NCBI GenBank assembly: GCA_964607745.1
Contig: CAZSLG010000001.1
Span: 1 to 32,555 of the forward strand
From: an uncultured Gammaproteobacteria bacterium
GTDB lineage: Bacteria; Patescibacteriota; Microgenomatia; UBA12405
Length of the DNA stretch: 32,555 nt
Direction of reading: 5' to 3'
Positions 1,241 through 32,555 of the stretch are shown piece after piece. The notes beneath the pieces were generated by a model. It was not told where the DNA came from. It was given only the letters and a program-made list of their open reading frames with translations, and did not search any database. A program made the translations under genes and the position numbers. The first letter of the stretch is position 1; the number at the start of each line of letters is the position of its first letter.

Positions 1241-1729
1241 ATGGCAAAAACAGCCACAGAAGGGACTGATTTCAAGGGAACGTTCGGAAAATTAGAAGTT
1301 ATTTTGGAAGAATATTTGGTAGAAAAAGTACCGTTTCAGCTGCCAAAAAACGTTAAGGAGATCATCGTCAAGTTTGCCCCATATTTAGCGATCATTGGAG
1401 TTGTCATGGGTATTCCGGGGGTTTTAGCTCTACTTGGAGCCGGAACAATCTTAGCGCCTTTAGGATTAGTTGGAGGAATGATGACAGGAAGACCATTTTT
1501 GGGATTTGGATATATCGTCAGCGTTGTATTTTTAGGAGTAATGATATTACTTGAGGGTCTGGCCATTCCTGGATTATTTTCCCGATCAAAAAAAGGTTGG
1601 ACTTATCTATATTGGAGCGCCCTTGTTGGAGTACTCCAGAATATAATCAGCTTTAACGTCGGAGGACTGGTCATTGGAGGGTTGATCTCAATGTATTTCC
1701 TTTTCCAGGTAAAAGAGTATTATAAATAA
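1241..1729 (+). CDS. Small polytopic membrane protein, function unknown
   Basis: 162-aa ORF starting 15 nt after the previous stop. It has 3-4 Gly-rich hydrophobic segments. Confidence 0.6.
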   Translation: MAKTATEGTDFKGTFGKLEVILEEYLVEKVPFQLPKNVKEIIVKFAPYLAIIGVVMGIPGVLALLGAGTILAPLGLVGGMMTGRPFLGFGYIVSVVFLGVMILLEGLAIPGLFSRSKKGWTYLYWSALVGVLQNIISFNVGGLVIGGLISMYFLFQVKEYYK

Positions 1730-1741
1730 GTTTTTTTATAG

Positions 1742-1819
1742 AGACTCGGTAACGAAATTTTTTATCACAGCGGGGACCCCTACACCCCGAAAGTGAAAAA
1801 AATTCCGGTTACCTCGTCT
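1742..1819 (+). repeat. Long-palindrome element, family A, copy A1 (intergenic)
   Basis: Core is TTTTTTATCACAG-CGGGG-ACCCCTACA-CCCCG-AAAGTGAAAAAAA. Outer arms CGGTAACGAAATTTT / AAAATTCCGGTTACC pair. Near-identical cores occur at 3658-3702, 4004-4047 and 6635-6678. Confidence 0.8.
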
Positions 1820-1833
1820 GCCAAATAACAGCA

Positions 1834-1921
1834 AAAGCGAGACGCTTAATTTTTTGCGACTTTTGGACCTCGCGACTGCGAAGAGGCTCCAACGGAGCAA
1901 TAAAATTTAGTGTCTCGCTTT
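1834..1921 (+). repeat. Long-palindrome element, family C, copy C1 (intergenic), MITE-like with about 20-bp terminal inverted repeats
   Basis: The ends AAAGCGAGACGCTTAATTTT and AAAATTTAGTGTCTCGCTTT are reverse complements at 18 of 20 positions. An inverted near-identical copy lies at 17650-17736. Confidence 0.8.
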
Positions 1922-1956
1922 AACTTTTTAAATCTTCTTCATGTTATTATATTAAG

Positions 1957-3095
1957 ATGAATTTAGATAACTACGATTATTTTTTGCCCGAAAAAAACTT
2001 AGCTTTGAGCCCGGCTGTACCTCGTGATTCTTCAAAACTTCTTATTTATAATTCTGTATCCGGAGAAATTATTTTTGATCGTTTTTATAATCTTGATAAG
2101 TATCTTCCCAATAATTCGTTTATGGTGATGAATAACACTAGGGTATTACCGGCCAGGGTTACCCTCCTACGCCAAGGCTTCGGAGGGCAGGCAAAAGGAA
2201 AAGTGGTAATTCTATTTCTAGTAAATGAAATTATTGATAACATTATTCCTGTAATGGTTGATCGTAAAATTAATGTTGGGGAAAAAGTATTTCTCGACTC
2301 AAAAAATTATTTAAAAGTAATTACTCAAAAAGAAAACATCTTTAATTTGGAGTTTAATTTTTCTCGGAACAATTTGTTTGATCTGTTAAGAAAATATGGA
2401 ACAATGCCGATTCCTCCTTATTTAAAAAAATCTCCGCTGAAAAGGGATGAGCTTTTAGAAAAATATCAGACAATTTTTGCCAAGACCGATGGTTCAGCGG
2501 CCGCTCCGACCGCATCGTTGCACTTTACTGACAGCGTTTTTAATAAATTAAAAAAAAAGGAATTGAAAAATATTTCATCACTCTTCACGTAGGGATGGGG
2601 ACATTCGCGCCGATCGATGAAAATAATATTAAACAAAAAAAGCTTCACGAAGAATATTATGAAATTGATAAAGAAACACTTCAATGTATTGATACATTGA
2701 AGAGCCAAGGAAAGAAGTTGGTGGCGGTGGGAACAACGGTTGTTAGAACGATTGAATCAATCGCTCGACAACATGTTTTTTCGTCCGCCACACCCCCACG
2801 GGGGCCCCTGGCGATTCCTCAAAAACAGTTGTCTTCGCTTTTAAAATCAAGGACCCAAAATCTAAAATCTAATATCTATAGCAAAACCGATCTTTTTATT
2901 TTTCCACCATATGATTTCAAATTAGTAGACATTATGATCACTAATTTTCATCTGCCGAAATCATCGCTGATGATGTTGGTTGAGGCGTTTTTACAATTTA
3001 AAGGAGCAAAAAATAGTTTGGTCGAACTGTATGAAATTGCTATTAAAAATAACTTTAGGTTTTATTCGTTTGGAGACGCCATGCTCATTTTATAA
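1957..3095 (+). pseudogene. queA: S-adenosylmethionine:tRNA ribosyltransferase-isomerase (QueA), reading frame broken in an A9 run
   Basis: ORFs 1957-2592 and 2595-3095 together give a QueA-like protein: N-terminal YDYFLPEKNLA..P..PRDSSKLL, then APTASLHFT, then ITLHVGMGTFAPI. The downstream frame is open back to 2547. The two frames join within A9 at 2550-2558, and a -1 shift restores ..NKLKKKGIEKYFITLHVGMGTF.. Confidence 0.85.
2759..2841 (+). repeat. Family A-like palindromic element with a variant core, inside queA
   Basis: Shares the arms GCTCGACAACATGTTTTTT ... AAAAACAGTTGTCTTCGCTTT with A3/A4. The core differs: CGCCA-CACCCCCACGGGGGCCCC-TGGCG. It translates as SSATPPRGPLAIPQKQLSSL. Confidence 0.55.
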
Positions 3096-3098
3096 AAC

Positions 3099-3236
3099 CT
3101 ACATGTTTGATATAGCCCGGAAAAGAAACAACACAAAGACAACTACCGCAGTAAGGACAGCCAAAGCAACATAATTTGTTTGATATGCTTCTTTTTTAAT
3201 AGTTCTCCTGACAGTTTTTTTAGATTTTCTTGCCAT
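3099..3236 (-). CDS. Possible 45-aa tail-anchored small membrane protein (below the ORF-track cutoff)
   Basis: ATG at 3236 and TAG at 3099-3101. Translates as MARKSKKTVRRTIKKEAYQTNYVALAVLTAVVVFVLFLFRAISNM, a basic N-terminus plus one TM helix. A consensus-like promoter sits directly upstream. Confidence 0.35.
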   Translation of the reverse strand: MARKSKKTVRRTIKKEAYQTNYVALAVLTAVVVFVLFLFRAISNM

Positions 3237-3242
3237 GTACAA

Positions 3243-3271
3243 AATATAACTGTCTAAATTTTATTTGTCAA
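3243..3271 (-). promoter_or_regulatory. Sigma70-like promoter TTGACA-N17-TATATT on the minus strand, 6 nt before the ATG at 3236 (leaderless geometry)
   Basis: The reverse complement of 3243-3271 reads TTGACAAATAAAATTTAGACAGTTATATT. Confidence 0.45.
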
Positions 3272-3325
3272 GATGGCGAATTTTGTCTGGTAGAATAATA
3301 AAGCATTGACAATAAAAAATGATTT

Positions 3326-4636
3326 ATGAATAAATTTTTTAAGGTTTTCCATAATTCCAAAAAATCCAAGTCGCGGTTAGGAGAAATTATGACGGATCAT
3401 GGGGCGATCAAGACCCCGGCATTTGTGCCGGCGGCAACGAAGGGAACAATTAAATCTTTATCACCTCAATTAATTAAGGAAATTGGGATACAGGCGGGTT
3501 GTGTTAATACATATCATTTAGTTACTCATCCGGGAGCGAAGATCATCGAAAAGGCCGGAGGAATTCATAAATATTCGCAATTAAATATGCCATTGATGAG
3601 TGACTCAGGGGGGTTTCAGGTATTTTCATTGGCCAGAGATAAGACTCGGCGTGAGTCTTTTTTATCACAGCGGGGACCCCTGCACCCCGAAAGTGAAAAA
3701 AATCCTCCCGCCTCATCTTCAATGGATCAAAGAAAAGCCGATATTCGCGGTGAAGAACAGCCTTTGTTAGTAAAGATTTCCGAAGATGGGGTGAAGTTTC
3801 GGTCGACATTTGATGGGGCATTAATTGAATTTACTCCGGAGAAATCGATGGAATATCAAAGGCAGATCGCGGCGGATATTAATATGGCGTTTGACGAGTG
3901 TACTTATTATCCGGCGACGCATGAGTATGCGGAAAAAGCGATGCAAAGAACCCATGAATGGTTACTTCGTTGTATTAAATATAAAAAAAGCTCGATACCG
4001 AAATTTTTTGACACAGTGGGGACCCCTAACCCCAAAAGTGCAAAAAATTTAGTATCTTCGCTTTCTAAACAATATTTATATGGTGTGATTCAGGGAGCAA
4101 CTTATGAAGATTTGCGTAAAAAATCAGCCGAGTTTGTGGTTTCACAGGGAACACCGGGTGTTGCCATTGGGGGAGTATCGGTCGGGGAGACTAAGAAAGA
4201 GATGAGGGATCAGGTCCGATGGGTGTCCGATTATTTGCCAAAGGATCGGCCGGTTCATTTACTTGGAGTGGGGCAGATAGACGATATAATTGACCTTGTA
4301 AAATACGGGATTGATACTTTTGATTGTGTAGAGCCGACGAGATTGGCGAGAATGGGAACACTATATGAAATTTTCAATAAAAATGAAAAATTCAAAATGA
4401 AAAATGAAAAATCTGGTGAAATCGATATTAACAAATCGATTTATAAGAATGATTTGAATCCAGTTGTAAGCAATTGTCAGTGCTACACTTGTCTCAATTT
4501 CACCAGGTCTTATCTCCATCATTTATTTAAACAACGGGAAATCCTCGGCTACACTCTGGCAACCTTTCATAATTTATGGGTGATGGAGAAATTGTTTGAG
4601 GGGATTCGCGATTTAATAATCAAAGATAAAATATAA
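3326..4636 (+). CDS. tgt: Queuine tRNA-ribosyltransferase carrying three extra in-frame segments
   Basis: Motifs TPAFVPAATKG, NTYHL, SDSGGFQVFSL, FDEC, GVIQG, GGVSVGE, LLGVG, FDCVEPTR and the zinc motif CQCYTC..HHL are present. The protein is longer than classical Tgt at 3641-3719, 3987-4064 and about 4366-4412. Confidence 0.92.
   Translation: MNKFFKVFHNSKKSKSRLGEIMTDHGAIKTPAFVPAATKGTIKSLSPQLIKEIGIQAGCVNTYHLVTHPGAKIIEKAGGIHKYSQLNMPLMSDSGGFQVFSLARDKTRRESFLSQRGPLHPESEKNPPASSSMDQRKADIRGEEQPLLVKISEDGVKFRSTFDGALIEFTPEKSMEYQRQIAADINMAFDECTYYPATHEYAEKAMQRTHEWLLRCIKYKKSSIPKFFDTVGTPNPKSAKNLVSSLSKQYLYGVIQGATYEDLRKKSAEFVVSQGTPGVAIGGVSVGETKKEMRDQVRWVSDYLPKDRPVHLLGVGQIDDIIDLVKYGIDTFDCVEPTRLARMGTLYEIFNKNEKFKMKNEKSGEIDINKSIYKNDLNPVVSNCQCYTCLNFTRSYLHHLFKQREILGYTLATFHNLWVMEKLFEGIRDLIIKDKI
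3641..3719 (+). repeat. Family A element, copy A2, in frame inside tgt
   Basis: Core at 3658-3702 differs from A1 at one base. Translated as ..SFLSQRGPLHPESEKNPP.. Confidence 0.8.
3987..4064 (+). repeat. Family A element, copy A3, in frame inside tgt (78 bp = 26 codons by my boundaries)
   Basis: Arms AAAGCTCGATACCGAAATTTTTT ... AAAAAATTTAGTATCTTCGCTTT flank the core GACACAGTGGGGACCCCTAACCCCAAAAGTGC. Translated as KSSIPKFFDTVGTPNPKSAKNLVSSL. Confidence 0.75.
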
Positions 4637-4674
4637 TTAAATGACTAAATACTATTTATTAAAATAACTAAGTC

Positions 4675-4683
4675 TGCTATAAT
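4675..4683 (+). promoter_or_regulatory. Extended -10 element TGCTATAAT upstream of the 4710 CDS
   Basis: Exact TGnTATAAT match 27 nt before the ATG. Confidence 0.4.
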
Positions 4684-4709
4684 ATATACTATAAGATAAA
4701 TATAATCAT

Positions 4710-5900
4710 ATGTCAGCAGAAACATTTTCTAAACCGATTTTAAGAGATGAAATATTAAGCGAAACCCAAAGACGTCATGGTTTGCTTCCAATTCTTGCAG
4801 CTTCAGCTTTTTCAAAAGAAGCTCATTTTAGGGTTGAAGATTTTGAAATTGCCAAAAGGAGGAGTCAAGTTGTAATAAAAGACCGGTGTCCCGACGCCAG
4901 AACAGATTCAATCTTTGATTTAGCTACTTTTACAACTTCTTCCATCGCTTCAGCAGGTGATCCAAACTATTACACAAAATTGTATAATCACCCGTCTTCA
5001 AAAATTATTGTTTCCTATACTCATTTTGATGCGGAGGAAACCAAAAGAAATCGAAAATCAACAGGATGTGGTGGACAGGGAGCAAAGGAAATGGAAGAAG
5101 AAGATAATCCTGCCCTACATAAACTTTCGGCTGGAATAAAAGAATATGTTCATAATGATATATCAACAAGCGACCCAATCATTCTGGCTTTTGAAAAAGC
5201 TAGAAGAATTTCAAGATTAGCGCCAAATAAAATCGTACTTGCAGCCGTGCTTGACCATCTAAGTCTAAAATTAAATATTTTTGCCGCTATGACCAAAGGC
5301 GGGAAAATAAGTTTTACAAAAATTAATCCATTTGCACCAGTGGAAGATAGATATTTTTTTGAAGGAAGAGAGGACGAAATCATAAGCGAAATACAGAGGG
5401 CAGATATAAATGACGACAGATTAGCTGATGCTGTTTTTCTTTTAAGAGAACACAATAATCGACAAAGAAATTATATTCTTGATCAAAACGAACTTAGACA
5501 AAGCCAAAAAATTCAAAATCCTTTTATACTGCATATTGGAACAGGTGTTTCTTCTATAAAATATCGTTTACCTGGTTTGTTTGAAGGACCAAACTGCCAT
5601 TTTTCTTTGAGAGTACCAATGGTAGGCAGGCAAAAGAAAATGCTTCTACAAAAAGCACTCAATCAGGCAGAATACCCTCTAACTCACGCCGTGGAAAGTA
5701 TAAAAAAAGGATCAGGACAATTTTTTGATATGAGAACCATACTAATTGAAGCACCTGATGAACCGTCACTAAGAGAGATTACAGAGGATTTATCAACAGT
5801 TTTTGGATTAGAAGAATGGTTGGACTTGGGGGGAAGAATTATCATCTCAGAATTTGAAGAAGGCAAAATAATCAAATCCATTAATCATTTTGAATATTAA
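4710..5900 (+). CDS. Hypothetical soluble protein, 396 aa, no family recognised
   Basis: Long ORF filling the gap between tgt and fmt, with no TM segments. I cannot assign a domain from memory. Confidence 0.6.
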   Translation: MSAETFSKPILRDEILSETQRRHGLLPILAASAFSKEAHFRVEDFEIAKRRSQVVIKDRCPDARTDSIFDLATFTTSSIASAGDPNYYTKLYNHPSSKIIVSYTHFDAEETKRNRKSTGCGGQGAKEMEEEDNPALHKLSAGIKEYVHNDISTSDPIILAFEKARRISRLAPNKIVLAAVLDHLSLKLNIFAAMTKGGKISFTKINPFAPVEDRYFFEGREDEIISEIQRADINDDRLADAVFLLREHNNRQRNYILDQNELRQSQKIQNPFILHIGTGVSSIKYRLPGLFEGPNCHFSLRVPMVGRQKKMLLQKALNQAEYPLTHAVESIKKGSGQFFDMRTILIEAPDEPSLREITEDLSTVFGLEEWLDLGGRIIISEFEEGKIIKSINHFEY

Positions 5901-5901
5901 T

Positions 5902-6888
5902 TTAAAATATTTTGTAAGCTTTATTAAAAGTTTTAAAGTCAACTTCGGTTTTTCCTTCAAGTTGAACAGCGTCAATTGTTAAATTGTTAAATTGTTTCAT
6001 TGTTATCTTGGTGATTTTCAGTCTCTTGCCGTTGGGGAGGATAGTCCAAATTCCAGGCCAGGGATAAAGCCCCCGAAAAAGATTAAATAATTTTTCGGGG
6101 GAATTTTCAATTTTCAATTTTAAATTTTCAAAGGAAATAAAGCCGCCGGATTTTTCCAATTTTTTTGTATAAGTTGCCTCCTTATGATTTTGTTCTGTTA
6201 ATTTAAAAATGGGGCCTGTCTCGTGTCTTTTCCCGTCGGTGCTCGCTTCGGACAAAATCCCTCGACTGCGTGCCGTCGGGATCCCTAGACCCTCGACACC
6301 CATTTTTATTATTATCTTAAACATTTCAAAGGCTAAATTAGTTAATTTTGTTTCCAAATCCGGCCTATAATCGGAGCTTTTGATCGTATAAGTTTCTTGT
6401 GCAATAATCGGCCCGTGGTCTATCTCTTCATCCATTTTGATTATGGTGACTCCAGTGGTTTTGTCTCCATTGATTAAAGGAGTGGCGATCGGGGAGGGTC
6501 CGCGATATTTTGGCAGTAAAGATGGATGAATATTCCAAAAACCGTACTTCGGCAAGCTCAATATTTTTTTTGGAATAAGAGCGCCGTAAGCATAAACCAA
6601 AACTAAATCGATGTCTTTGAGCTCGATATATAAATTTTTTATCACAGCGGGAACTCCTAACCCCGAAAGTGAAAAAAATTTAATGTCTTTGCTCATAAGA
6701 TATTTTTTTGCAACTAATTTTACCGGAGTAGGAGTTAGAATTTGTTTTCGACCAACTTTTTGATCGGGTTGGGTCACTACAAGTTTCACTTCAATTAATT
6801 TATTAATTGTAGTATCTGTAATCAGTTTTTCCAGAAAATCGGCAGCAAAGTCGGGAGAACCGAAATAGACAATTTTGAATTTATCCAT
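5902..6888 (-). CDS. fmt: Methionyl-tRNA formyltransferase with in-frame inserted segments
   Basis: Matches to Fmt: KIVYFGSPDFA, VVTQPDQKVGRKQ..TPTPVK, the SLLP motif region WNIHPSLLPKYRGPSPI, GDKTTGVTIIKMDEEIDHGPI, and C-terminal YPWPG. Extra segments lie at 6618-6695 and 6205-6307. Confidence 0.92.
   Translation of the reverse strand: MDKFKIVYFGSPDFAADFLEKLITDTTINKLIEVKLVVTQPDQKVGRKQILTPTPVKLVAKKYLMSKDIKFFSLSGLGVPAVIKNLYIELKDIDLVLVYAYGALIPKKILSLPKYGFWNIHPSLLPKYRGPSPIATPLINGDKTTGVTIIKMDEEIDHGPIIAQETYTIKSSDYRPDLETKLTNLAFEMFKIIIKMGVEGLGIPTARSRGILSEASTDGKRHETGPIFKLTEQNHKEATYTKKLEKSGGFISFENLKLKIENSPEKLFNLFRGLYPWPGIWTILPNGKRLKITKITMKQFNNLTIDAVQLEGKTEVDFKTFNKAYKIF
6205..6307. repeat. GC-rich inserted block with inverted ends (family D), in frame inside fmt
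   Basis: The ends AAAAATGGGG and ACCCATTTTT are reverse complements at 9 of 10 positions. They bracket a GC-rich block in an AT-rich gene. On the gene strand it translates as GVEGLGIPTARSRGILSEASTDGKRHETGPI. Confidence 0.5.
6618..6695 (+). repeat. Family A element, copy A4, inside fmt, plus-oriented although fmt is on the minus strand (78 bp)
   Basis: Arms TGAGCTCGATATATAAATTTTTT ... AAAAAAATTTAATGTCTTTGCTCA flank the core ATCACAGCGGGAACTCCTAACCCCGAAAGTG. Read antisense it gives KFFSLSGLGVPAVIKNLY. Confidence 0.75.
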
Positions 6889-6950
6889 GGACTTATTATA
6901 TCAATTACAATATTATTGTTAATTTTACTGGTGAATGATAGAGTTATATT

Positions 6951-8825
6951 ATGAAAAAAACTTTATTGATCTTGCTTTTAGTTTTTCTAATAAACTTTTT
7001 TTCGGGTTCATTATTTGCTATCACTCCAACTCCAACGCCCGATCCAGACGTCCAATCTTCATATACAATGGAATGTCTTTTACCCCCGGATAATGCAGGA
7101 ATAGCGACCAGGGAGATCCATGGTTCTGAATCACAACTAATTGCCGCAAAGCCGCCTCCATCGATCACGATGACCTTGAGTGGACAATGTTCGTCGGCTG
7201 AAGGATGTGATCTGGTCTTATGTACAACACCAAACAAAAGAGATCTGGCACTTAATCCATTAGCCGGTGGGCAAGGAGTTCCCAGATCGGGAGTGGATCA
7301 TTCAAGCGAACAATGCACAACAGGAAACTCGGAAAAAGACATTTATTATTTTGGCCAAGATTATACTCGGATAACGACTGCAACTTTAACAGCCCCAAGT
7401 TTGGTTGACAATCATATGAATCCCGGACCGGTTACCGATTTGGAAGTAATTTTAAATCACCCTGAACCGCATTCTTTTTACAGCTTTTATGCAGTTGGTA
7501 AAGCCGGTGGGATATTGCTTCCAACCGTCACAGGCGGAGTGGTCCCGTCAATTGCTGAAAATCGCACTCAACAACTTGGTACGATCAGCTCGGTATCGGC
7601 GCCACAGACAGGTCTAGCCACAGGTGAAGAGGGTAAATGCCAAACAATTTTTTGGGACCCGTATGGCCGGGTATTTGACGGAATATCCCTTGAACCGTTG
7701 AATAAAAATGAAGCAATGGTGACTTTATTAAATAAAGATACGACTGTAGTGGCAATTCCCGGCAATAATGTTAATCTTGATGTCTTGGGAAAATATAACA
7801 TTTTAATTGACAAGGATGGAGAATATAGGTTAAATGTTGTTCCGGCAACATCTCACCAATTTGCTGATTTTATTCCCGACTTACGATACAAAGATCTTTA
7901 CGAATCAATCTTTATGCCAAGCGATCCTGCCTTTTTCGAATCAATAAGCAAGCCAATAAGAATGGATGTGGCCTTGAAACCCGTCTCAACTCCGTATAGT
8001 CGGCAGATCGATGTTGTCCAAACCGATTATAAACAGGTTTGGGCCGGTGGGAAAAAATATATAAAGATTGAAATAAGAACGACACATCCGAGATCGATAT
8101 TCAAATTAATCATTAATGATATTATCGTCAAAGATAACGGGGAAGGGACGGCCCTCCCAACCACTGCCGATAAAAACGGCTATTGGAAAATAATGGTTCG
8201 TGATTATAAAGTTCTTTCCCAGAAAGGTTTTAGGGTTGAAATTTCAAAGAACCCTCAATATTATATGTTTGCCGGGAGCACAGGAAACAAGTTGATCATT
8301 GATTTTGATCCGATTCTCTCATATATCGAGGGATACACATATGATGACAACGGATTATTGCTTCCGAACACAAAAATCGAGGTCAGGTTGAAAATGAATG
8401 ACAGCGTGTTTTATGAAACCCGATCTGATGATCAGGGATTTTTTACGATCGACTCAGCCAATTTACATCCGATGGATTATTACCTTGTGTTCGTTGGTCC
8501 ATCAAATAGTCAATCTATTAAAAAAACAACGGCAAAATTTGTTATTGAGAATGCCACTTATTTAGATAAGGAAAAAATAAATCTATTTAAAGGGGAAAAA
8601 AATGGAAAACCGATAGTTAAAAATATTGAAAAAGTGCGAGATTATCCATCTACAAGTAGTATTCAACAAAGTGATTTAGAAAAAAAAATAGCCAATGCAA
8701 AAAAAACAAGATCAAAATTTAGCAGTTCTTTATTAATAGGTCTTTTCGGTTTAACAATGCTTATTCTCATAGTCGGAGCTATAATTGTATCCTTATTTTT
8801 CAGAAAACCTAAAACTACTTTTTGA
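6951..8825 (+). CDS. Secreted, C-terminally anchored surface protein, paralog 1 of 3, with beta-sandwich (CarboxypepD_reg / Cna-B-like) motifs
   Basis: Signal peptide MKKTLLILLLVFLINFFSGSLFA and a PT linker. Shared family motifs are QQLGT, C.T..WDPYGRVFD..SLEP, YNIL, and IEGYTYDDNG..LPN.K.EV......FYET.SDD.GFFTI. It ends in a C-terminal TM helix plus a basic tail. Confidence 0.75.
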   Translation: MKKTLLILLLVFLINFFSGSLFAITPTPTPDPDVQSSYTMECLLPPDNAGIATREIHGSESQLIAAKPPPSITMTLSGQCSSAEGCDLVLCTTPNKRDLALNPLAGGQGVPRSGVDHSSEQCTTGNSEKDIYYFGQDYTRITTATLTAPSLVDNHMNPGPVTDLEVILNHPEPHSFYSFYAVGKAGGILLPTVTGGVVPSIAENRTQQLGTISSVSAPQTGLATGEEGKCQTIFWDPYGRVFDGISLEPLNKNEAMVTLLNKDTTVVAIPGNNVNLDVLGKYNILIDKDGEYRLNVVPATSHQFADFIPDLRYKDLYESIFMPSDPAFFESISKPIRMDVALKPVSTPYSRQIDVVQTDYKQVWAGGKKYIKIEIRTTHPRSIFKLIINDIIVKDNGEGTALPTTADKNGYWKIMVRDYKVLSQKGFRVEISKNPQYYMFAGSTGNKLIIDFDPILSYIEGYTYDDNGLLLPNTKIEVRLKMNDSVFYETRSDDQGFFTIDSANLHPMDYYLVFVGPSNSQSIKKTTAKFVIENATYLDKEKINLFKGEKNGKPIVKNIEKVRDYPSTSSIQQSDLEKKIANAKKTRSKFSSSLLIGLFGLTMLILIVGAIIVSLFFRKPKTTF

Positions 8826-15252: not shown

Positions 15253-16296
15253 ATGACTGAGAATGTAACTATTATTGGTGGTGGGCCGGCAGGACTATCT
15301 GCAGCGATTTATTTAGCCCGGGCCGACCTAAAACCTTTGGTATTTGCCGGATCACCTCCTGGCGGTCAATTAACCCTTACTTCAGAGGTGGAAAATTATC
15401 CGGGATTTGAATCAATTTTAGGTGCTGAACTGATCGAAAAAATGAGAAATCAAGCAAAGAAATTTGGAGCAAGGATAGTAGATGAGAATGTAATTAAAAT
15501 TGATTTTTCAAATAAGTCTAATGGGTCTCATAAGACTTATTTGACTAATAAGACATATAATTCAAAATCGGTCATCATCGCCACGGGCGCCAAAGCTTTA
15601 TGGTTAGGTCTTCCTTCTGAAACCCGATTACGCGGGAAAGGAGTGTCAGCATGTGCAACTTGTGACGGATTTTTTTTCCGTGAAAAAACGGTGGCTGTAA
15701 TTGGCGGAGGCGATACGGCCTTGGAAGAGGCTTTGACCTTGACAAAGTTCGCTAAGAAAGTATATATTATTCACCGACGGGATTTTTTTCGCGCGTCAAA
15801 GATAATGCAGGAACGGGTGGGGGTCGGTCACGCCCGACCCGTACAAAAAAATCCAAAAATTGAAATTATTTGGAATTCGGCAGTTGAGGAGATAATAGGG
15901 GAAAAACATGTTGAAGGAATTAAAATTAAAAACGTAGGGGTCGACCGTGGTCGACCCGAACAAGAAATCAAATTAGATGGCGTTTTCGTCGCGATTGGCC
16001 ACAAACCGGACACGAATTTATTTAAAGATAAGATAGAGCTTGATAGTAAGGGCTATATTTTAAATACAAAATATGTTGGAATTGAAAATTTGAACATTAA
16101 AAATTCAACGAAAATTGAAAATTTAAAATTAAAAATTCCGAAGTTTAATATTAATTACGGATCACAAACTTCGGTCCCCGGGGTTTTTGTTGCCGGTGAT
16201 TGTGCCGACCCATATTATCGCCAGGCAGTGACGGCGGCGGGGACGGGAGTTGAGGCAGCGCTGGAGGTAGAGAGATATTTGGAAAATGTAAAATGA
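15253..16296 (+). CDS. trxB: Thioredoxin-disulfide reductase carrying several in-frame palindromic or AT-rich insertions
   Basis: Matches to TrxB: IIGGGPAGLSAAIYLARA, GGQL..T.EVENYPGF, redox-active CATCDG, the second Rossmann motif VIGGGDTALEEA, HRRD.FRAS, FVAIGH.P.T, GVFVAGD and YRQAVTAAG.G. Extra segments are VGVGHARPVQ, VGVDRGRPEQ and KYVGIENLNIKNSTKIENLKLKIPKFNINYG. Confidence 0.93.
   Translation: MTENVTIIGGGPAGLSAAIYLARADLKPLVFAGSPPGGQLTLTSEVENYPGFESILGAELIEKMRNQAKKFGARIVDENVIKIDFSNKSNGSHKTYLTNKTYNSKSVIIATGAKALWLGLPSETRLRGKGVSACATCDGFFFREKTVAVIGGGDTALEEALTLTKFAKKVYIIHRRDFFRASKIMQERVGVGHARPVQKNPKIEIIWNSAVEEIIGEKHVEGIKIKNVGVDRGRPEQEIKLDGVFVAIGHKPDTNLFKDKIELDSKGYILNTKYVGIENLNIKNSTKIENLKLKIPKFNINYGSQTSVPGVFVAGDCADPYYRQAVTAAGTGVEAALEVERYLENVK
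15508..15544. repeat. Perfect 12-bp inverted repeat (family H) inside trxB
   Basis: TCAAATAAGTCT-N13-AGACTTATTTGA. It is related to the hairpin at 18848-18871 and a half-copy at 15227-15239. Translated as ..SNKSNGSHKTYLT.. Confidence 0.6.
15821..15844 (-). repeat. REP hairpin (GGGTCGG stem) in frame in trxB, with a degenerate head
   Basis: GGGTCGG-TCACGC-CCGACCC-GTAC. It is the same hairpin as 22200-22223 and 27356-27379 except that CTAC is replaced by GTAC. Confidence 0.8.
15934..15957 (+). repeat. REP hairpin, in frame in trxB
   Basis: GTAG-GGGTCGACC-GT-GGTCGACCC. Confidence 0.8.
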
Positions 16297-16297
16297 T

Positions 16298-16372
16298 GTA
16301 GGGGTTTCATTCATGAAACCCAAAAATGGCAAATAAATAACCATCGGTGGGTTTGATAAATCAAACCCCTAC
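16298..16372. repeat. Inverted REP doublet (REPIN-like) 2 nt after the trxB stop, a possible terminator
   Basis: GTAG-GGGTTTCAT-TC-ATGAAACCC (16298-16321) and GGGTTTGAT-AAA-TCAAACCC-CTAC (16349-16372) face each other. The linker contains CATCGGT, which is also seen next to REPs at 19803-19811 and 22050-22058. Confidence 0.75.
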
Positions 16373-17638: not shown

Positions 17639-17649
17639 TTACTAATATT

Positions 17650-21776: not shown

Positions 21777-22337
21777 CTATTTTTTATTTGCATTCACCGG
21801 ATTATTTCGATCCCGATCCCACATCAATGGGTTGTTAATAATATATTCACGGATTTTATTTAGATCGGATTCATTATGGATGATGTGTTCGTAATAATTG
21901 CGTTGGAATATTTTTTTGCCAGGTGTATTTCGTAATTTATTAATTTGTTTTGAACATTCCGTTTTAAACATCCCAACGATAAAACCCAACGTGCCTGTAG
22001 GGGCGCGGCGTGACGCGCCCGTATCAAATAATTGTGACGCGCCCGTAATCATCGGTCGTGCGCCCGAAACAATATGTAAAATAAAATGTACGTGATTTGG
22101 CATTATTTGAAATGCATCCAATTCAACCGGATGATGTTTGGGTAATGATTCCCATACATTTTCAATGATTTTTCCGTATTGATTTAAATTCATTGAAACG
22201 GGTCGGTCACGCCCGACCCCTACAACAATATCCCCAAACAAACATTCCCGGTTTTCTGTACAAATTGTGACAAAATACAACCCCGATTTTGAATAATCAT
22301 AATTTTGTAACCTGATTGATTGTCTATTTTTGACCAT
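21777..22337 (-). CDS. REP-associated tyrosine transposase (RAYT; IS200/IS605-type Y1 HUH enzyme), copy 1
   Basis: Matches: RLQNYDYS..GLYFVTICT..R...FG, the HUH motif MPNHVHFILH, the catalytic Tyr region FQRNYYEHIIHNE..L..IREYIINNP..W. It has an ATG start. Confidence 0.88.
   Translation of the reverse strand: MVKNRQSIRLQNYDYSKSGLYFVTICTENRECLFGDIVVGVGRDRPVSMNLNQYGKIIENVWESLPKHHPVELDAFQIMPNHVHFILHIVSGARPMITGASQLFDTGASRRAPTGTLGFIVGMFKTECSKQINKLRNTPGKKIFQRNYYEHIIHNESDLNKIREYIINNPLMWDRDRNNPVNANKK
21997..22047 (+). repeat. REP hairpin inside RAYT copy 1, plus a 24-bp extra segment repeating its 3' half
   Basis: GTAG-GGGCGCG-GCGTGA-CGCGCCC at 21997-22020. GTGACGCGCCCGTA occurs at both 22010-22023 and 22034-22047. 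RAYT copy 2 lacks the extra 24 bp (8 aa, SQLFDTGA). Confidence 0.8.
22200..22223 (-). repeat. REP hairpin inside RAYT copy 1
   Basis: GGGTCGG-TCACGC-CCGACCC-CTAC, read in the gene as VGVGRDRP. Confidence 0.85.
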
Positions 22338-22367: not shown

Positions 22368-25300
22368 TTACGGGGATCCCGTTGCCGGACCGAATCTAAT
22401 TGAACTATTTTCGTTATATAAGGTCTTGATTTGTAACGGGGTCAGGGCGTAATTGAAAACCCGGACATCGTCTATCTGGCCGTTGAAATAGCGGTTAACA
22501 GCTTCTGTATCATTTCCAATTATGAGTGACTGTCCTGATGTTGTTATTCCGCCAGAATAATTAACACTATTTTCCTGTTTTCCATTGACAAACACTTTTG
22601 CAGTTGTGCCGTCATATGTTGCGGTAACAAAAAACCAATCACCAGTTTCTATATTTGTTGTTCCGGTTAGAGTCTGGTATGGAGAACCACCAATGTCAAA
22701 TCTTAAACGACTAGAGTTGTCAATGTTAATTTGATAACCAGTGTTAACAAATTTATCTATTATTCCTGAATAATTGTTTGTTCCTGATGTTTTAATCCAT
22801 GCGGCAACAGTAATGGAATTTGAATTTAGTGCAGAATTATCAGTAATTGAAACATAATCATCCGTTCCGTCGAATTCCAGACTGGAGTTATATTTTCCGG
22901 TTACCCCGTCTTTCCAGGCCTCGCCGGCACTACCCGTACAAGTCCCCGCTGAAGTATTTGTTCCCGTTGCTCCAATTGTGATTGTCCCGCTATTTCCATT
23001 ACCGGATGAGTCGTTAGCAGTATTTCCTTGACACTCATCCATCTTCCAATGTCCCACCGGCCCGCCGCGATTGTAGTCCCAGGCGATTTGAGCCGGCGTT
23101 CGGGCGTAGTTGTAGATACGGACGTGGTCAATAGTGCCTTGAAATTCTTCCCATGCCGAAGCAGAACAACAAGCATTTCCTAAGATATCATTTTGAGCAT
23201 TGGTAATATCAATTATTGTGGACATTGATTGTGTAGTTCCAACATTAATTGATCCGTCAATATATAGAACAGCGTTACCGTCTCGGTCTCCAACCAAGGT
23301 GGCATTATGCCAATTGTTATCTATGTAGGTTGAGGTAGTTGCGCTATTAATGAAATGGCCGCCATTGTCCCTAATATAATATGAAACTTCTCCTGTTCCA
23401 GCAACGAAAAGTCCAATACCAGCCCAATCAATACCTCCATCTCTGCTGTCGAAGATTGTTTGAGTATAACTGGATCCTGTGCTTTTAAACCAAGCTGAAA
23501 TAGTAATGTCTTTATTAGTGCTAAAAGTAGTAGCGGAATTATATGGAACACTAATTAGATCGGACCAATCATTGCCCCCGTCGAAATTAATACCTGAACC
23601 AAATTTTCCTGAACGCCACCTAGGGCTACCAGTAAATGTTCCGGTTAGTCCATTCCCACTCGTATCATACGCGTTCGTGCCGGTTTTTTCGTCAAACTTC
23701 CATTCGCCAACCGGAGCAGAGCAGGAAGTCGTATCTCCTGGAACGCAATATCCACGGGCGGAAGAATTATCCGCTACAGCGCCTGTCGAATCGGTTGACA
23801 CAGAGCCTAAAACCATCGCTGATCCATGATTATAGTCCAATTTTATTTCGTCTGACGTGAGAGCAGAGTTATAAATTTTCACTTCGTCAATTAACCCATT
23901 AAAATAAAATCCGGAAGCATTAAAAGTACCAATAAGAAGATCAATACTGGAAGTTGTCAAAGAAAAAGTACGAGCGGTCGAAAATTTATTAATTCCATCT
24001 AAATATCCTGCCCACGTAGTTCCATCATAACTGTAGATAATCTGATGCCAATTAGTATCGGAAATAGTAATACCCGAACCAGTTCGAGGATTAGAGCCGG
24101 TATAACTACCGGAATAAAATTCAACTTGGTTATCAACATATTCCCAAATAATAGAATAAGAATTATCAGTTCCAGCATCATTTCTTTTGCTAATCAAGTA
24201 GCGATTAGTTTGAGTGAGATCAGAGGGTTTCAACCATAATGAAATGGTAAAACTATTAGTTAAATCAACACTGTTATTATCAGGGATATCTACATAATCA
24301 CCATTACCGTCAAAATTAATTGCTTTGCCAAATTTCCCGTTCATTGACCAGGTGGCATTGGTTTTTGTTCCATCCAATGCGGAACCTACGTTACCGGAAT
24401 TACACACGTCGTTTACTCCGCTGGAGCAGGTGTTGTCCGCGCCTTCGTCAAATTTCCAATATCCAAGTTGCGAACCAACCGGACTTCCACCCACGGGGTG
24501 GCCGGCGTTCATATCCTCGACGATTTGCTTGGAGTTACGGACGTAGTTATAGAGTTTTACTTCATCAAGCTTCCCGGCTAAATAGTTAGTGGAAATTTTT
24601 CCGAAATTAAGGGCGGAAGCATTTAGATTAGTTGCGGTCGTGACAGTTATATATTGCCACTGGTTAGCAGCCAAAGTTAAAGAAACAACACCGTTGACGT
24701 AAATAGTTGGAGAAGTAAATCCGGTCGCAGATAATGTTCCGGAGGTGGCAGAAATATAAGCTGAACCGTTTAAGTCAACAAAATAATTGGTTGTTGAAGT
24801 CGGATACGTCCAAAAGGAAACAGAGTTAACGATCGTTGGACCGGTGCCTTGAGAAATATAATCATCGGTACCGTTAAAATTTCCGGCCGAACCAAATTTA
24901 CCGGTCGTCCAATGGCTTGCACCTGTCCCATTCCAGGTGCCGGTGTATCCGTTGCCACTGATATCATTGATCGACGCACCGGTTTTTTCATCAAAGTTCC
25001 AAGATCCAACCGGACCAGGAGCCCAGTAGTATAGGTCTCGAACTTCTTTTCCGGAAAGGGCACGGTTGTATATACGGGCTTCGTCGATTTTGCCGTTAAA
25101 TTCATATGATGATAAACCAGCCTGTCTTGAACCAAATATTAAAGAGTTATCATTTGTAGAAGGTGTATTTGTAATGGTAGTATCTTTTTCTTTTAGTTCA
25201 CCGTTTTGATATATATACAAAGTATTATTTATATCATCAAAAACTCCAATAATATGAACCCATTGTCCTGTGGGAATAGCGGTTTGAGTATCAACTTCTG

Positions 25301-26885
25301 ATTGAACAGAGTTAGTTCCATAAAAACCGAATCTTACAATAGTACCACCAGAATCGTAAAAGAAACCATAATTCCCCATATTACTAGATTGATCTTTGGC
25401 AACAATGCCAGCGTAAGCAATTTGAGTACCGTTGGAATAAACCCAAGTTGATAAGGTAAAAGATGAAGAAAACTCCCAGGCAGAGTTTTCTGTCACCGAA
25501 GTGTAATCATCAATTCCATCGTAAGTGGTAGAATTTCCAAATTTTCCAGCGGCAGAAGTAGTATTACCATTCCAAGCGCCGTTGCTGGCGTTACCGGAAG
25601 AGTCGCAAGAATCATTAACTCCACCTGTACATGTATTAACAGCTGACTCATCCATCTTCCAATATCCCACTAATCCATCGGAAAAAGATGATAGATTTTT
25701 GATGTTGGATCCTAAACTAGCAGCTGTGCCTTTTACCGATCCAGAGCCTTTTGAAGCAAAGTCAGATTTAATTTGAGCCGCCGAGCGGGCATATTGGTAA
25801 ATTTTAACATCATCAACAAATCCATTAAAACGATAAGCGCTATTATTGGTAATGCCACCTATTCTAAGAGGATTACTTTGTGTGCTATTTCCGGCGGTGC
25901 CAGTCCATGAAGCTTGGGTAACCAGCTGTCCATCTCGATACAATTTTAATCCTGAGGTTTCTACAACAGCAACTAAATGGGTCCAATTATTTGTAGCGGT
26001 GCCAAAAGAGTATCCATAACCACTTGAATATAACTTATTATTTGCATCTACAAAATAATAAAAATAATAACTTCCGCTGGAAGAATCAATATTCCATCCA
26101 TTGCTTGCAGCTGCGGGATATTTACTAACAATTGCCTTCCAGTCTCCTTGATTAATAGTAGTTGACTTGACCCAAGTTTCAATTGTTAAAGGCAAATTTA
26201 CTTGATTAGTTTTATGAGGAATATCGACGTAATCTCCAGCATCAAAATATAGACATTTTCCGGACACGCATTGATCTTCAGATTTCCAAGTAGGGGCCGC
26301 AGTTGATGTTCCAAACACGCCGGTATTAGAATTTTTAGTAGAATCATTTGTGTTCGTCCCATATCCCTCATCAAACTTCCAGTAAGAGATCGGGGCGGCG
26401 CCGTTTTCTTCGGAGGCGGCGGTCGGGCCGGAAGTCGGGGAGAAAGTCGCTTGGGAAAATTGGGCGGAAACTGTGCCATTTTGTACCGATGGATTTCCGT
26501 AATAGTGGTATAAATTTGTGTTTCCGGTATTGATAGTTGGAACTAACACATAATAATCAGTTGAGTTTGTATTGCATGCGCCGCCTTCCGTGTCAATAAA
26601 ATATTGAAGCACACGTCCGTTAATATTTGTGAATCTAGAATCACCGCAGTCGGTCTGCAACTTTCCGGCGGTAATAAGAGTTGCCGTATCAACATCAAAC
26701 TTTACTTTTTTATCACTGTCTGCACTTCCGGTATTGCCGATCGTTAATCCAGTTCGATAAAGCCAGCTATCATTCATCCATGCCGCCTGAACCTTTGACT
26801 GATATTTGGTTACGAGATAAAAAATCGGCAGGGTAATGATCAAAAAAATCACCGAAAAAAGCATTATTTTCCGTTTTAAAACCAT
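22368..26885 (-). CDS. Giant surface protein: N-terminal TM anchor, DUF2341-like domain, then about six LamG / concanavalin-A-like lectin repeats
   Basis: MVLKRKIMLFSVIFLIITLPIFYLV is the TM anchor. WMNDSWLYRTGLTI...DCGDSRFTN.NG..L.Y.ID resembles DUF2341. Each LamG repeat ends [ILV]D[ED][VA][KR][ILV][YF]N.A[LR][ST]..[EQ]I...Y, six times. The track start at 26966 would add 27 aa that include a REP, so I prefer the ATG at 26885. Confidence 0.82.
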   Translation of the reverse strand: MVLKRKIMLFSVIFLIITLPIFYLVTKYQSKVQAAWMNDSWLYRTGLTIGNTGSADSDKKVKFDVDTATLITAGKLQTDCGDSRFTNINGRVLQYFIDTEGGACNTNSTDYYVLVPTINTGNTNLYHYYGNPSVQNGTVSAQFSQATFSPTSGPTAASEENGAAPISYWKFDEGYGTNTNDSTKNSNTGVFGTSTAAPTWKSEDQCVSGKCLYFDAGDYVDIPHKTNQVNLPLTIETWVKSTTINQGDWKAIVSKYPAAASNGWNIDSSSGSYYFYYFVDANNKLYSSGYGYSFGTATNNWTHLVAVVETSGLKLYRDGQLVTQASWTGTAGNSTQSNPLRIGGITNNSAYRFNGFVDDVKIYQYARSAAQIKSDFASKGSGSVKGTAASLGSNIKNLSSFSDGLVGYWKMDESAVNTCTGGVNDSCDSSGNASNGAWNGNTTSAAGKFGNSTTYDGIDDYTSVTENSAWEFSSSFTLSTWVYSNGTQIAYAGIVAKDQSSNMGNYGFFYDSGGTIVRFGFYGTNSVQSEVDTQTAIPTGQWVHIIGVFDDINNTLYIYQNGELKEKDTTITNTPSTNDNSLIFGSRQAGLSSYEFNGKIDEARIYNRALSGKEVRDLYYWAPGPVGSWNFDEKTGASINDISGNGYTGTWNGTGASHWTTGKFGSAGNFNGTDDYISQGTGPTIVNSVSFWTYPTSTTNYFVDLNGSAYISATSGTLSATGFTSPTIYVNGVVSLTLAANQWQYITVTTATNLNASALNFGKISTNYLAGKLDEVKLYNYVRNSKQIVEDMNAGHPVGGSPVGSQLGYWKFDEGADNTCSSGVNDVCNSGNVGSALDGTKTNATWSMNGKFGKAINFDGNGDYVDIPDNNSVDLTNSFTISLWLKPSDLTQTNRYLISKRNDAGTDNSYSIIWEYVDNQVEFYSGSYTGSNPRTGSGITISDTNWHQIIYSYDGTTWAGYLDGINKFSTARTFSLTTSSIDLLIGTFNASGFYFNGLIDEVKIYNSALTSDEIKLDYNHGSAMVLGSVSTDSTGAVADNSSARGYCVPGDTTSCSAPVGEWKFDEKTGTNAYDTSGNGLTGTFTGSPRWRSGKFGSGINFDGGNDWSDLISVPYNSATTFSTNKDITISAWFKSTGSSYTQTIFDSRDGGIDWAGIGLFVAGTGEVSYYIRDNGGHFINSATTSTYIDNNWHNATLVGDRDGNAVLYIDGSINVGTTQSMSTIIDITNAQNDILGNACCSASAWEEFQGTIDHVRIYNYARTPAQIAWDYNRGGPVGHWKMDECQGNTANDSSGNGNSGTITIGATGTNTSAGTCTGSAGEAWKDGVTGKYNSSLEFDGTDDYVSITDNSALNSNSITVAAWIKTSGTNNYSGIIDKFVNTGYQINIDNSSRLRFDIGGSPYQTLTGTTNIETGDWFFVTATYDGTTAKVFVNGKQENSVNYSGGITTSGQSLIIGNDTEAVNRYFNGQIDDVRVFNYALTPLQIKTLYNENSSIRFGPATGSP

Positions 26886-26914
26886 ATTAAAAATATTTAT
26901 TTTTTGATTATCAT

Positions 26915-26938
26915 GGGCGAGTCGCGCCTCGCCCCTAC
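26915..26938 (-). repeat. REP hairpin between RAYT copy 2 and the preferred LamG gene start
   Basis: GGGCGAG-TCGCGC-CTCGCCC-CTAC. Confidence 0.8.
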
Positions 26939-26962
26939 ATTTTATGTATCGATATGTTTTTT

Positions 26963-27493
26963 TCATATTGTATTTTTTGGATTATTTCTATCCCGATCCC
27001 ACATTGTTGGGTTGTTGATAATATATTCACGGATTTTATTTAAATCATTTTCCGTACGAATAATATGTTCGTAATAATTGCGTTGAAATATTTTTTGACC
27101 AGGCGTATTTTGTAATTTATTGATTTGTTTTGTGCATTCCGTTTTGAACATTCCAACGACGAAACCCAACGCGCCTGTAGGGGCGCGGCGTGACGCGCCC
27201 GTAATCATCGGTTGTGCACCCGAAACAATATGTAAAATAAAATGTACGTGATTTGGCATTATTTGAAACGCGTCCAATTCGACCGGATGATGATCGGGTA
27301 ATGATTTCCATATATTTTCAATGATTTTTCCGTATTGATTTAAATTCATTGAAACGGGTCGGTCACGCCCGACCCCTACAACAATATCACCCAATAAACA
27401 TTCCCTGTTTTGGGTACAAATCGTTATAAAATACAATCCCGATTGGGAATAATCATAATTTTTTAATCTGATTGATTGACGGTTTTTATTCAT
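26963..27493 (-). CDS. REP-associated tyrosine transposase (RAYT), copy 2
   Basis: By eye, close to nine-tenths identical to copy 1 at protein level, with the same HUH and Tyr motifs. The ATG at 27493 (MNKNRQSIRL) is preferred over the track's TTG at 27505. Its stop overlaps the track ATG at 26966 in an ATGA arrangement. Confidence 0.88.
   Translation of the reverse strand: MNKNRQSIRLKNYDYSQSGLYFITICTQNRECLLGDIVVGVGRDRPVSMNLNQYGKIIENIWKSLPDHHPVELDAFQIMPNHVHFILHIVSGAQPMITGASRRAPTGALGFVVGMFKTECTKQINKLQNTPGQKIFQRNYYEHIIRTENDLNKIREYIINNPTMWDRDRNNPKNTI
27177..27200 (+). repeat. REP hairpin inside RAYT copy 2
   Basis: GTAG-GGGCGCG-GCGTGA-CGCGCCC. Confidence 0.85.
27356..27379 (-). repeat. REP hairpin inside RAYT copy 2
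   Basis: GGGTCGG-TCACGC-CCGACCC-CTAC. Confidence 0.85.
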
Positions 27494-27494
27494 A

Positions 27495-32555
<5,061 letters not shown>

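Follow-up and report, generated by a model that had tools for sequence, protein, structure and literature searches.

A palindromic DNA repeat residing in frame in tgt, fmt and other housekeeping genes of a Candidatus Roizmanbacteria lineage

Within positions 1 to 32,555 of contig CAZSLG010000001.1 (assembly GCA_964607745.1; hereafter the window), we observed four near-identical copies of a long palindrome that we term family A: one in a spacer, two within tgt, which encodes tRNA-guanine transglycosylase, and one within fmt, which encodes methionyl-tRNA formyltransferase. Family A is a repeat that resides in frame in many unrelated genes, that is present, absent or reduced to a footprint at orthologous sites, that displays compensatory covariation along its stem and that leaves the folds of its host enzymes intact. 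It is probably a non-autonomous selfish DNA element, akin to the Rickettsia palindromic elements (RPEs), repetitive extragenic palindromes (REPs) and transposable elements of the miniature inverted-repeat type (MITEs), that is translated through and tolerated in protein loops in a clade of Candidatus Roizmanbacteria, a lineage of the Candidate Phyla Radiation (CPR)/Patescibacteria.

Family-A copies and their host genes

The four units lie in the region 1500-7200 (Table 1) and share one layout, consisting of an outer arm, T6, A-TCAC-AG-CGGGG, a loop of 8-9 nt, CCCCG-AAA-GTGA, A6-7 and a second outer arm. The initial annotation of the window had described four copies of this architecture at these positions, and both the sequence and a pattern count confirm it: the core pattern CACAGYGGGRNYYCCN{2,5}CCCCRAAAGTG matches exactly the four copies in the window, where 0.00 matches are expected, and a grouping of the window's repeats places them in families D5 and D6. 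A more generic description of the 5' end (CTCG, arm, at least five T) gives five matches in the window against 1.16 expected, all on the plus strand, namely the four copies and one at 2764 in queA. The latter had been proposed as a variant-core copy, and this holds: its termini, arms and T/A runs are those of family A, only the GC-rich core differs, it is matched by the covariance model (Table 1), and the orthologous site in relatives carries true family A.

The element measures about 78-90 nt and has conserved termini, RGMC-TCG ... YTCG-KCYY. The inner arms of 9-10 bp vary in sequence from copy to copy but keep their complementarity; they are followed by the T6/A6-7 clamp and then by the GC-rich apex given above, which is nearly invariant. 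A GAC subtype ends in ...CCTCGTCT and contains CGTC within. Each of the five copies folds into one long imperfect hairpin (RNA, -24 to -27 kcal/mol, z -3.8 to -6.4), and DNA folds of A1 and A3 give z -4.7 to -6.3 on both strands. The 5' arm of A2 taken alone (3641-3664) forms an 8-bp hairpin followed by T6, a terminator-like motif in sense orientation within tgt. A terminator or promoter role of family A was considered and dropped, the respective scans being not above background.

As first annotated, all copies are plus-oriented, are read in sense in tgt and in antisense in fmt, and are open in both; the tgt open reading frame (ORF) runs through A2 and A3 and the fmt ORF through A4. The frames of A2 and A3 differ in their 5' halves, and the register is restored by a one-base difference in loop length.

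The motifs DSGGFQ, FDEC and CxCxxC...H are invariant among Tgt orthologues, leaving the catalytic and zinc sites intact. Alignment with E. coli Tgt puts the extra residues after FQVFSLA and before (L)YG(V)IQG, the positions at which the initial annotation had placed the insertions. Their origin at the first site was only partly as supposed, in that the element accounts for about 29 of the 45 extra residues; to judge from the empty state in orthologues, REQRKANVRGEEQPLV, the other 16 belong to an extension native to Roizmanbacteria. The supposed insertion into fmt is likewise in frame but is not a simple addition. Here, 29 element-coded residues stand in the window in place of the whole of a strand-helix segment, probably the native state, of about 18 residues (e.g. 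KIQMIDSSLTNPSSIFQD), and because A4 replaces this segment rather than adding to it, the net gain over solved Fmt structures is only 6-11 residues. The catalytic motifs of Fmt are invariant. A second, unrelated in-frame insert, GVEGLGIPTARSRGILSEASTDGKRHETGP, occupies 6209-6300 of fmt (residues ~197-226); it is GC-rich, its hairpin is not significant (z -0.9), and the linker in which it lies measures 42 aa in the window versus 14 aa in many orthologues.

The queA gene is split into two ORFs by a frameshift in an A9 run just upstream of 2592. The same run is seen in an independent assembly that is 99.93% identical (L024), and the frameshift could be a pseudogene, a slippage site or a homopolymer error common to both; L014, L035 and L036 (L numbers denote loci from relatives) have an intact QueA. 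Near 2163-2190, queA also contains a 15-nt GC-rich mini-hairpin insert (LLRQGFGGQA) that is missing from L014, L035 and L036, and a similar peptide occurs in Tgt P0109. AT-rich low-complexity sequence is found at 2846-2880 in queA and at 4373-4415 in tgt, where it forms site 3 (FNKNEKFKMKNEKSGE). This third Tgt loop is hypervariable, and in other orthologues it holds palindromic elements, including family A (L034).

The initial annotation had proposed structure prediction to see whether the inserts form surface excursions, and AlphaFold models agree with this. The Tgt model, built from the orthologue alignment (predicted template-modelling score, pTM, 0.81), has a predicted local distance difference test score (pLDDT) below 50 only at residues 101-145, 226-246 and 354-363, which are the three variable sites; the remainder of the model matches Z. 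mobilis and T. maritima Tgt with a target-normalised TM of 0.89-0.90. In the Fmt model (pTM 0.85), the element region has pLDDT 52-76, and helix 79-90 is modelled from element-coded AVIKNLYIEL, leading into a native strand. In both enzymes, the models thus show the inserts as low-confidence excursions, with the remainder of the fold intact. The second Fmt insert, at residues 202-226, has pLDDT ~40.

Table 1. Coordinates of family-A copies, their host genes and other repeats and genes in the window
Feature	Position	Strand	Context and scores
A1	1742..1819	+	intergenic, between ORF 1241..1729 and queA; arm subtype GGTAACG/CCGGTTACC; covariance model 92.7 bits
Family-B long palindrome	1828..1934	-	abuts A1, composite ~195 nt; DNA fold z -6.2; weak covariance-model match, 23.4 bits, - strand
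queA	1957..3095	+	two ORFs, 1957..2592 and 2595..3095; PF02547 on both halves
Variant-core copy	2759..2841	+	queA, in frame, sense, ARQHVFSSATPPRGPLAIPQKQLSSL; covariance model 25.9 bits, E 0.0013
tgt (tRNA-guanine transglycosylase)	3326/3386..4636	+	E 7e-75 to solved Tgt
A2	3641..3719	+	tgt site 1, after FQVFSLA; sense frame 1, KTRRESFLSQRGPLHPESEKNPPASSS
A3	3987..4064	+	tgt site 2, before QYLYGVIQG; sense frame 2 then frame 1, KSSIPKFFDTVGTPNPKSAKNLVSSLS
fmt (methionyl-tRNA formyltransferase)	5902..6888	-	catalytic motifs invariant
A4	6618..6695	+	antisense in fmt, MSKDIKFFSLSGLGVPAVIKNLYIELK; between AKKY and IDLVLVYAYG
GTAG-REP family (GTAGGGG, covarying stem-loop, CCC)	15934-15957, 16298-16372, 19812-19944, 20530-20553, 21997-22223, 26915-26938, 27177-27379		
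RAYT-like Y1 (HUH) transposase ORF	21777..22337	-	186 aa; PF01797 29.3 bits; NF047646 (REP_Tyr_transpos) 65 bits
RAYT-like Y1 (HUH) transposase ORF	26963..27505	-	180 aa; PF01797 26.8 bits; NF047646 (REP_Tyr_transpos) 64 bits

Distribution, hairpin maintenance and turnover

The core pattern occurs in 4 of 185,579 species-representative genomes: Candidatus Roizmanbacteria NC_groundwater_1828, two metagenome-assembled genomes named "Patescibacteria/bacterium" and one bin labelled Gammaproteobacteria. That bin is syntenic with the window at ~82%, and its label is probably mistaken. A further 20 metagenome contigs contain the pattern, whereas viral contigs gave 0 matches, and the closest Tgt and Fmt homologues carry the names Roizmanbacteria or Patescibacteria. 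A census with nhmmer of the window and 34 loci (290 kb) yielded 50 distinct matches, of which ~39 are family A; most loci had been retrieved by a pattern covering the family-A core, so that core identity is inflated.

Among the 39 distinct copies, 23 lie wholly within long ORFs, 18 in sense and five in antisense, and all five antisense copies are in fmt (the orthologous copies being in L011, L013, L023 and L028). The genic copies occupy 11 distinct sites in 10 proteins. By Pfam, the nine identified hosts are Tgt (at three sites), QueA, Fmt, a CopA-type P-type (E1-E2) ATPase, glutamate dehydrogenase (GDH), TatD, leucyl-tRNA synthetase, an M16 peptidase and one protein without a Pfam match; NAD synthase hosts a longer-core relative of family A. 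Every genic copy (23/23) keeps the host frame and is free of stops, and this holds across the three reading frames in use, which give NFLSQRGPLHPESEKNLLSS, KFFDTVGTPNPKSAKNL and, in antisense, DIKFFSLSGLGVPAVIKNL. By inspection, four of the six frames of the consensus are open in either loop-length variant, and one and the same site is read in different frames in the window and in L009, the peptide not being conserved. The comparison with RPEs, selfish palindromes tolerated in frame, that was made in the initial annotation therefore stands: the same repeat is found in at least 10 unrelated proteins, its occupancy is lineage-specific and the folds are intact.

The 16 non-genic copies sit in short spacers between genes, in varied contexts, and none of the 16 splits a recognisable gene. 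At the level of independent coding sites, 10 of 11 are sense and one is antisense (binomial p about 0.01), a bias that may reflect either frame-dependent tolerance of the peptide or a strand-specific insertion process. Element length modulo 3 was compared between genic and intergenic copies and is uninformative: measured from anchor to anchor, lengths of 68, 70 and 71 nt are each found among genic copies, because the real ends of the insertion are not the same from copy to copy. A protein search with a doubled element peptide gave no candidates. A phmmer search with the 30-aa window peptide against 1.84 billion representatives gave 0 matches at E up to 0.001, a query of this size being too short for power.

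The hairpin is maintained while its sequence changes. Across 36 aligned copies there are 23 different 5' arms, yet the pairing energy of an arm with its own partner is -7.3 kcal/mol compared with -2.7 kcal/mol for arms taken from different copies. Under an explicit structure, standard pairs fill 90.4% of cells. Twelve pairs have changed on both sides, accounting for 80 cells versus 32 in shuffles (0/500 shuffles reach this value), and sliding the 3' partner by 1-3 columns reduces pairing to only 40-55% of cells. As one subfamily is out of register in the pairing alignment, these pairing figures are conservative. The covariation includes an apical C-G to T-A change in seven copies and GC to AU changes in the outer arms. 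Certain unpaired positions are also conserved, namely a bulged G, a bulged A, AG facing AAA and, at the foot, TC facing YTC. G-U pairs favour the minus strand, which is antisense to most host mRNAs, by 29 to 7 (~7 vs 2 independent events), and in 32 of 39 copies it is the G-rich strand that carries the plus strand of the element, a figure that is confounded by gene orientation; the two counts give conflicting indications of the active strand. Rfam contains no match to the element at the gathering threshold or at E up to 1.

The occupancy of orthologous sites turns over freely. In a sample of 120 Tgt orthologues that was not selected by the core pattern (59-88% identity, 373-490 aa), length differences are concentrated at three hypervariable sites. 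When empty, site 1 reads REQRKANVRGEEQPLV, site 2 has 7-11 residues and site 3 has 9, and by a rough classification 29, 17 and 7 of the 120 orthologues, respectively, are short or empty there. Where a site is filled, the occupant is family A or belongs to one of at least eight further families whose termini are of the same kind; among these is a GTAG-REP doublet, VGAQFIAPKNKGVINHAPT, which is in frame at site 2 in 10 of the 120 orthologues. The sample also contains decayed, truncated and nested copies, and the insertion sites vary through non-palindromic low-complexity inserts as well. The initial annotation had named conservation of the extra segments at the protein level across distant taxa, without the palindrome, as the outcome that would speak against a mobile palindrome. 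We observe the opposite, with empty sites and other palindromic families among the 120 orthologues. In Fmt, the hypervariable site F1 ranges from 11 to 49 residues among orthologues.

DNA comparisons of syntenic loci reveal the same variation. At tgt site 1, L035 and L036 are empty, L013 and L014 have other cores, and L009 and L011 have family A. The outer arms at this site are inserted DNA; the available comparisons include no clean empty/filled pair at high identity. The queA site carries true family A in L009, L014, L016 and L035, nothing in L036 and the variant core in the window. The GDH of the window is without the family-A copy seen in L004, and in GDH, as in Fmt, family A replaces native sequence. 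Along the syntenic stretches, family A is missing from the 13 kb of L036 and is represented by a single copy in the 21 kb of L014. At tgt site 2, three relatives (L014, L035 and L036) keep only the footprints AAAGC-TCG-ATTTC, AAAGC-CCG-CTTTC and AAGAC-TCG-TCTTC. These in-frame footprints of ~12 nt consist of the two termini joined via one TCG, the inner 66 nt being gone; TCG is present at both ends of the full element, within the conserved termini, and the footprints retain one of them. We take the footprints to be remnants of the element and not the ancestral target because their complementary alternatives, AGC/GCT vs GAC/GTC, match the element termini. 

The A1 spacer provides a further case. 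A1 is present in L008 but missing from the syntenic spacers of L014, L035 and L036, and the abutting family-B palindrome is missing from the same three, so that these relatives lack the entire A1+B composite in the DNA alignment. Family B is ~100 nt long, with a second, inverted copy at 17637-17739 that is 86-97% complementary, and at other loci a B-like neighbour stands beside about two thirds of the intergenic family-A copies of the GGTAACG subtype. In one strain variant (L022 3470-3560, L024 2734-2824), unrelated sequence replaces everything left of the T-run of A1, placing a rearrangement breakpoint inside the element.

Tgt site 2 and GDH both contain the GACAC...GTGC variant, and the peptidase, Tgt and CopA have GACAAC arms in common. 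Because the same arm and core subfamilies thus recur in non-homologous genes, we infer that the element moves as DNA, by means of an enzyme whose possible nature is considered below.

Weighing the explanations

On the reading that we regard as probable, a selfish palindromic repeat would have inserted copies into intergenic spacers and protein-coding genes alike, and host selection would act as the filter, the survivors being in-frame, stop-free copies in loops or in replaceable surface segments. Genic copies would be transcribed and translated within the host enzyme, giving floppy peptides of 22-30 residues. The hairpin and its conserved unpaired bases would most likely serve as the recognition structure for a trans-acting enzyme that works on folded single strands. 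Deletion between the two TCG repeats would remove an element and leave the ~12-nt footprint, and elements could also be replaced by, or recombined with, relatives bearing other cores.

Several observations weigh against this account. Orthologous copies are 0.84-1.00 identical in the core compared with mostly 0.70-0.85 for the 200 nt of flanking gene on each side, and third-codon positions at identical amino acids agree at 194 of 228 sites (0.85) within elements versus 1455 of 2753 (0.53) in the flanks; a purely neutral passenger should have decayed. From the orthology signal of their arms, orthologous copies look vertically inherited. No consistent target-site duplication or target motif was found at tgt site 1, tgt site 2, queA, the A1 spacer or GDH, where the flanks, at ~75%, are too diverged. 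Neither the window nor the ~290 kb of loci contains an autonomous partner or parent insertion sequence with family-A termini, and in the window no family-A-like element adjoins the two genes for Y1 transposases resembling REP-associated tyrosine transposases (RAYTs), whose own repeats form a separate GTAG family. Translation through the element, finally, is a step that we infer.

The conservation is unevenly distributed along the element. Between orthologous and non-orthologous pairs, respectively, identity is 0.82 and 0.65 in the outer arms, 0.77 and 0.64 in the inner arms, 1.00 and 0.96 in the T/A runs, 0.96 and 0.91 in the core stems and 0.75 and 0.73 in the apical loop. The arms therefore record vertical descent, and the core is constrained across the family. 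In part, the conservation above synonymous flanks is an ascertainment effect of retrieval by the core pattern; in three pairs with a copy that was not retrieved by its own core (L009 three times, L014), 35 of 47 third positions (0.74) agree vs ~0.56 in the flanks. The excess may be due to selection on each copy, to gene conversion between copies or to re-insertion. In L009, the copies in queA, tgt site 1 and tgt site 2 all have a loop that is shorter by exactly 3 nt, and chimeric copies with mismatched arms exist in L001; on sequence comparison, the loop deletion common to three neighbours and the chimeric arms suggest gene conversion.

A more dynamic explanation, which we consider unlikely, is an active exchange of cassettes. 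Here, the hairpins would be modules with common recombination termini and interchangeable GC-rich cores, repeatedly excised and re-inserted at fixed docking footprints (RGMC-TCG-KCYY) in the loops of essential enzymes by a single-strand recombinase, RAYT-like or other. Such exchange would account for outer arms that are specific to a locus, inner parts that are common to several loci, the many cores per site and the far greater likeness of cores than of flanking synonymous sites. If it is true, it would be the design of the mobile DNA, and not drift, that makes the same loops in Tgt, QueA and Fmt hypervariable.

A host function for the hairpin, as a nucleic-acid motif selected at each locus, either a protein-binding site in the DNA or an mRNA structure acting on stability, processing or translation speed, strikes us as quite improbable, although the excess identity of orthologous cores and of synonymous sites within the element would be expected of it. 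It also finds support in core stems and T/A runs that are nearly invariant even between non-orthologous copies, in arms that keep their pairing and not their sequence, and in the preponderance of sense copies among the 11 independent coding sites. These estimates of conservation are, however, inflated by core-pattern retrieval, and a motif needed by its host is difficult to reconcile with occupancy that varies freely among close relatives, which may have an empty site, a footprint or another family, or with the truncated and decayed copies in a protein sample that was not selected by core. The element is just as well preserved where fmt reads it in antisense and in spacers whose neighbouring genes differ in orientation; the bias of its G-U pairs is towards the strand complementary to most host mRNAs, and it has no match in Rfam.

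That the elements are removed after transcription or translation in the manner of an intron or intein, leaving mature enzymes without the extra residues, is highly improbable. A long stable hairpin could in principle mark a processing site, and excised insertions are known from CPR rRNA genes (PMC11270868). Nevertheless, all 23 genic copies are in the host frame and stop-free in three frames, the shortening of the three L009 genic copies by exactly 3 nt each preserves that frame, and the 12-nt footprints are in frame as well. The element has no features of a catalytic RNA or an intein, being 78 nt long with no Rfam match and encoding 26 residues, too few for an intein, and cleavage of the RNase III type without ligation would destroy an essential mRNA. 

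The idea that the extra segments are ordinary lineage-specific loops with incidental palindromy, or an assembly artefact, is refuted in spite of the low-complexity length variation at the same sites, as the same 46-nt core recurs in spacers and in 10 unrelated proteins, is translated in any of three frames in the ORFs and covaries far above controls, and identical insertions are present in independent NCBI, JGI, ENA and Logan assemblies.

As for the enzyme that would mobilise the selfish repeat, a RAYT/IS200-type Y1 transposase is a candidate, tentative at best. The two RAYT-like ORFs of the window (Table 1) display the HUH and Tyr motifs; their PF01797 scores are above the cutoff and their NF047646 scores below the equivalog cutoff of 80. 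Both ORFs lie within a ~0.55 kb direct repeat (D3/D4), each just upstream of a giant ORF (22368..26966; 27495..32405), and each contains in-frame GTAG REPs (VVGVGRDRPVS). The GTAG-REP family as a whole has 11 copies in the window vs 0.32 expected, several of them inside ORFs, namely those of a TrxB-like protein, a TPR protein and the RAYT-like genes. The second giant ORF, of 1636 aa, includes a long array of 9-nt and 27-nt tandem repeats at 31183-32100 (108 overlapping copies).

Relation to known elements and significance

The closest behavioural parallel to family A is provided by RPE-1 to RPE-10 (Ogata et al. 2000, 2002, as summarised in PMC10969869 and PMC3733652). Both are palindromic repeats without coding capacity that are scattered in a small genome, and both have many copies in frame in unrelated housekeeping genes, including those of tRNA-modifying enzymes. 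Both offer several open frames, occupy surface regions compatible with the host fold and lack a known mobilising enzyme. The likeness is one of behaviour, and membership by descent is unlikely, since RPEs belong to Alphaproteobacteria, whereas the host of family A is a member of Candidatus Roizmanbacteria/Patescibacteria in the CPR. RPEs measure ~100-150 nt and family A 78-90 nt. In addition, and unlike in RPEs, many core families make use of one and the same loop, turnover being frequent and terminus footprints present, the Fmt and GDH copies replace native sequence, and the copies are better conserved than flanking synonymous sites. RPEs were reportedly described by Amiri and colleagues, in 2002, as ancient and deteriorating. 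For an RPE in the guanylate kinase of R. conorii, the enzyme has reportedly been compared with and without its insert.

With REPs and bacterial interspersed mosaic elements, family A has in common a hairpin form, subfamilies that differ by complementary stem changes and conserved unpaired bases at the foot. Both can lie in frame in genes, REPs occasionally and family A often, and encode 20-30 residues. Intragenic REPs with GTAG and CGTC tags are known (Di Nocera et al. 2013, PMC3733652), and CGTC-tagged REPs, like RPEs, are also without a dedicated transposase (Di Nocera et al., PMC3733652). The RAYT-like Y1 transposases encoded in the same window and the CGTC of the GAC subtype add to this likeness. 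REPs, however, are 20-40 nt long with a 5' GTAG or CGTC tag, whereas a family-A copy forms a composite hairpin of ~78 nt that has a T6/A7 clamp and an RGMC-TCG foot and lacks a GTAG tag. GTAG appears only in the minus-strand apical loop of the 9-nt-loop variants, and CGTC only in the GAC subtype. We considered the apical GTAG as a hidden REP tag and rejected this, the 8-nt-loop and TGCA variants being without it. The RAYT-like genes, moreover, are associated with the separate canonical GTAG family and not with family A.

Family A also resembles bacterial MITEs such as Correia, ERIC, BOX and Nezha in being short, non-autonomous and multi-copy, with terminal inverted repeats and no coding capacity of its own, and MITEs are sometimes intragenic with in-frame fusions (PMC10969869). 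It differs from them in that the whole element is one hairpin instead of two terminal inverted repeats around unrelated DNA, and in its very high in-frame fraction (23/39). 

Integron attC sites and the ends of IS200/IS605 (PATE) elements are recombination substrates folded from single strands. Like family A, they combine conserved termini with a variable complementary centre and conserved extrahelical bases, so that structure is conserved over sequence in the arms. Family A has no cassettes, integrase or array context of the attC kind, and the analogy is one of mechanism only.

We found no description of coding palindromes, MITEs or RPE-like elements in the literature on CPR, Patescibacteria or Roizmanbacteria, and a 2024 review of MITEs only speculates on similar elements in other prokaryotes (PMC10969869). 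In-frame coding palindromes have so far been treated as a near-unique oddity of Rickettsia. Family A looks like a second, very active case in an unrelated lineage with ultra-small genomes, the CPR Roizmanbacteria, and its local density is higher, with three adjacent housekeeping genes carrying at least seven inserts. The many core families per site, the footprints, the replacement of native segments and the conservation above that of synonymous sites are unusual features, and the last of these calls for explanation. The natural states of the same sites (filled, empty, footprint and swapped), together with a candidate enzyme class encoded on the same contig, could help to explain how palindromes move. 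Loop insertion of this kind can confound CPR gene annotation, orthology calls, alignments and trees, and in reduced genomes the insertion of repeats into loops appears to be a general way in which protein length evolves.

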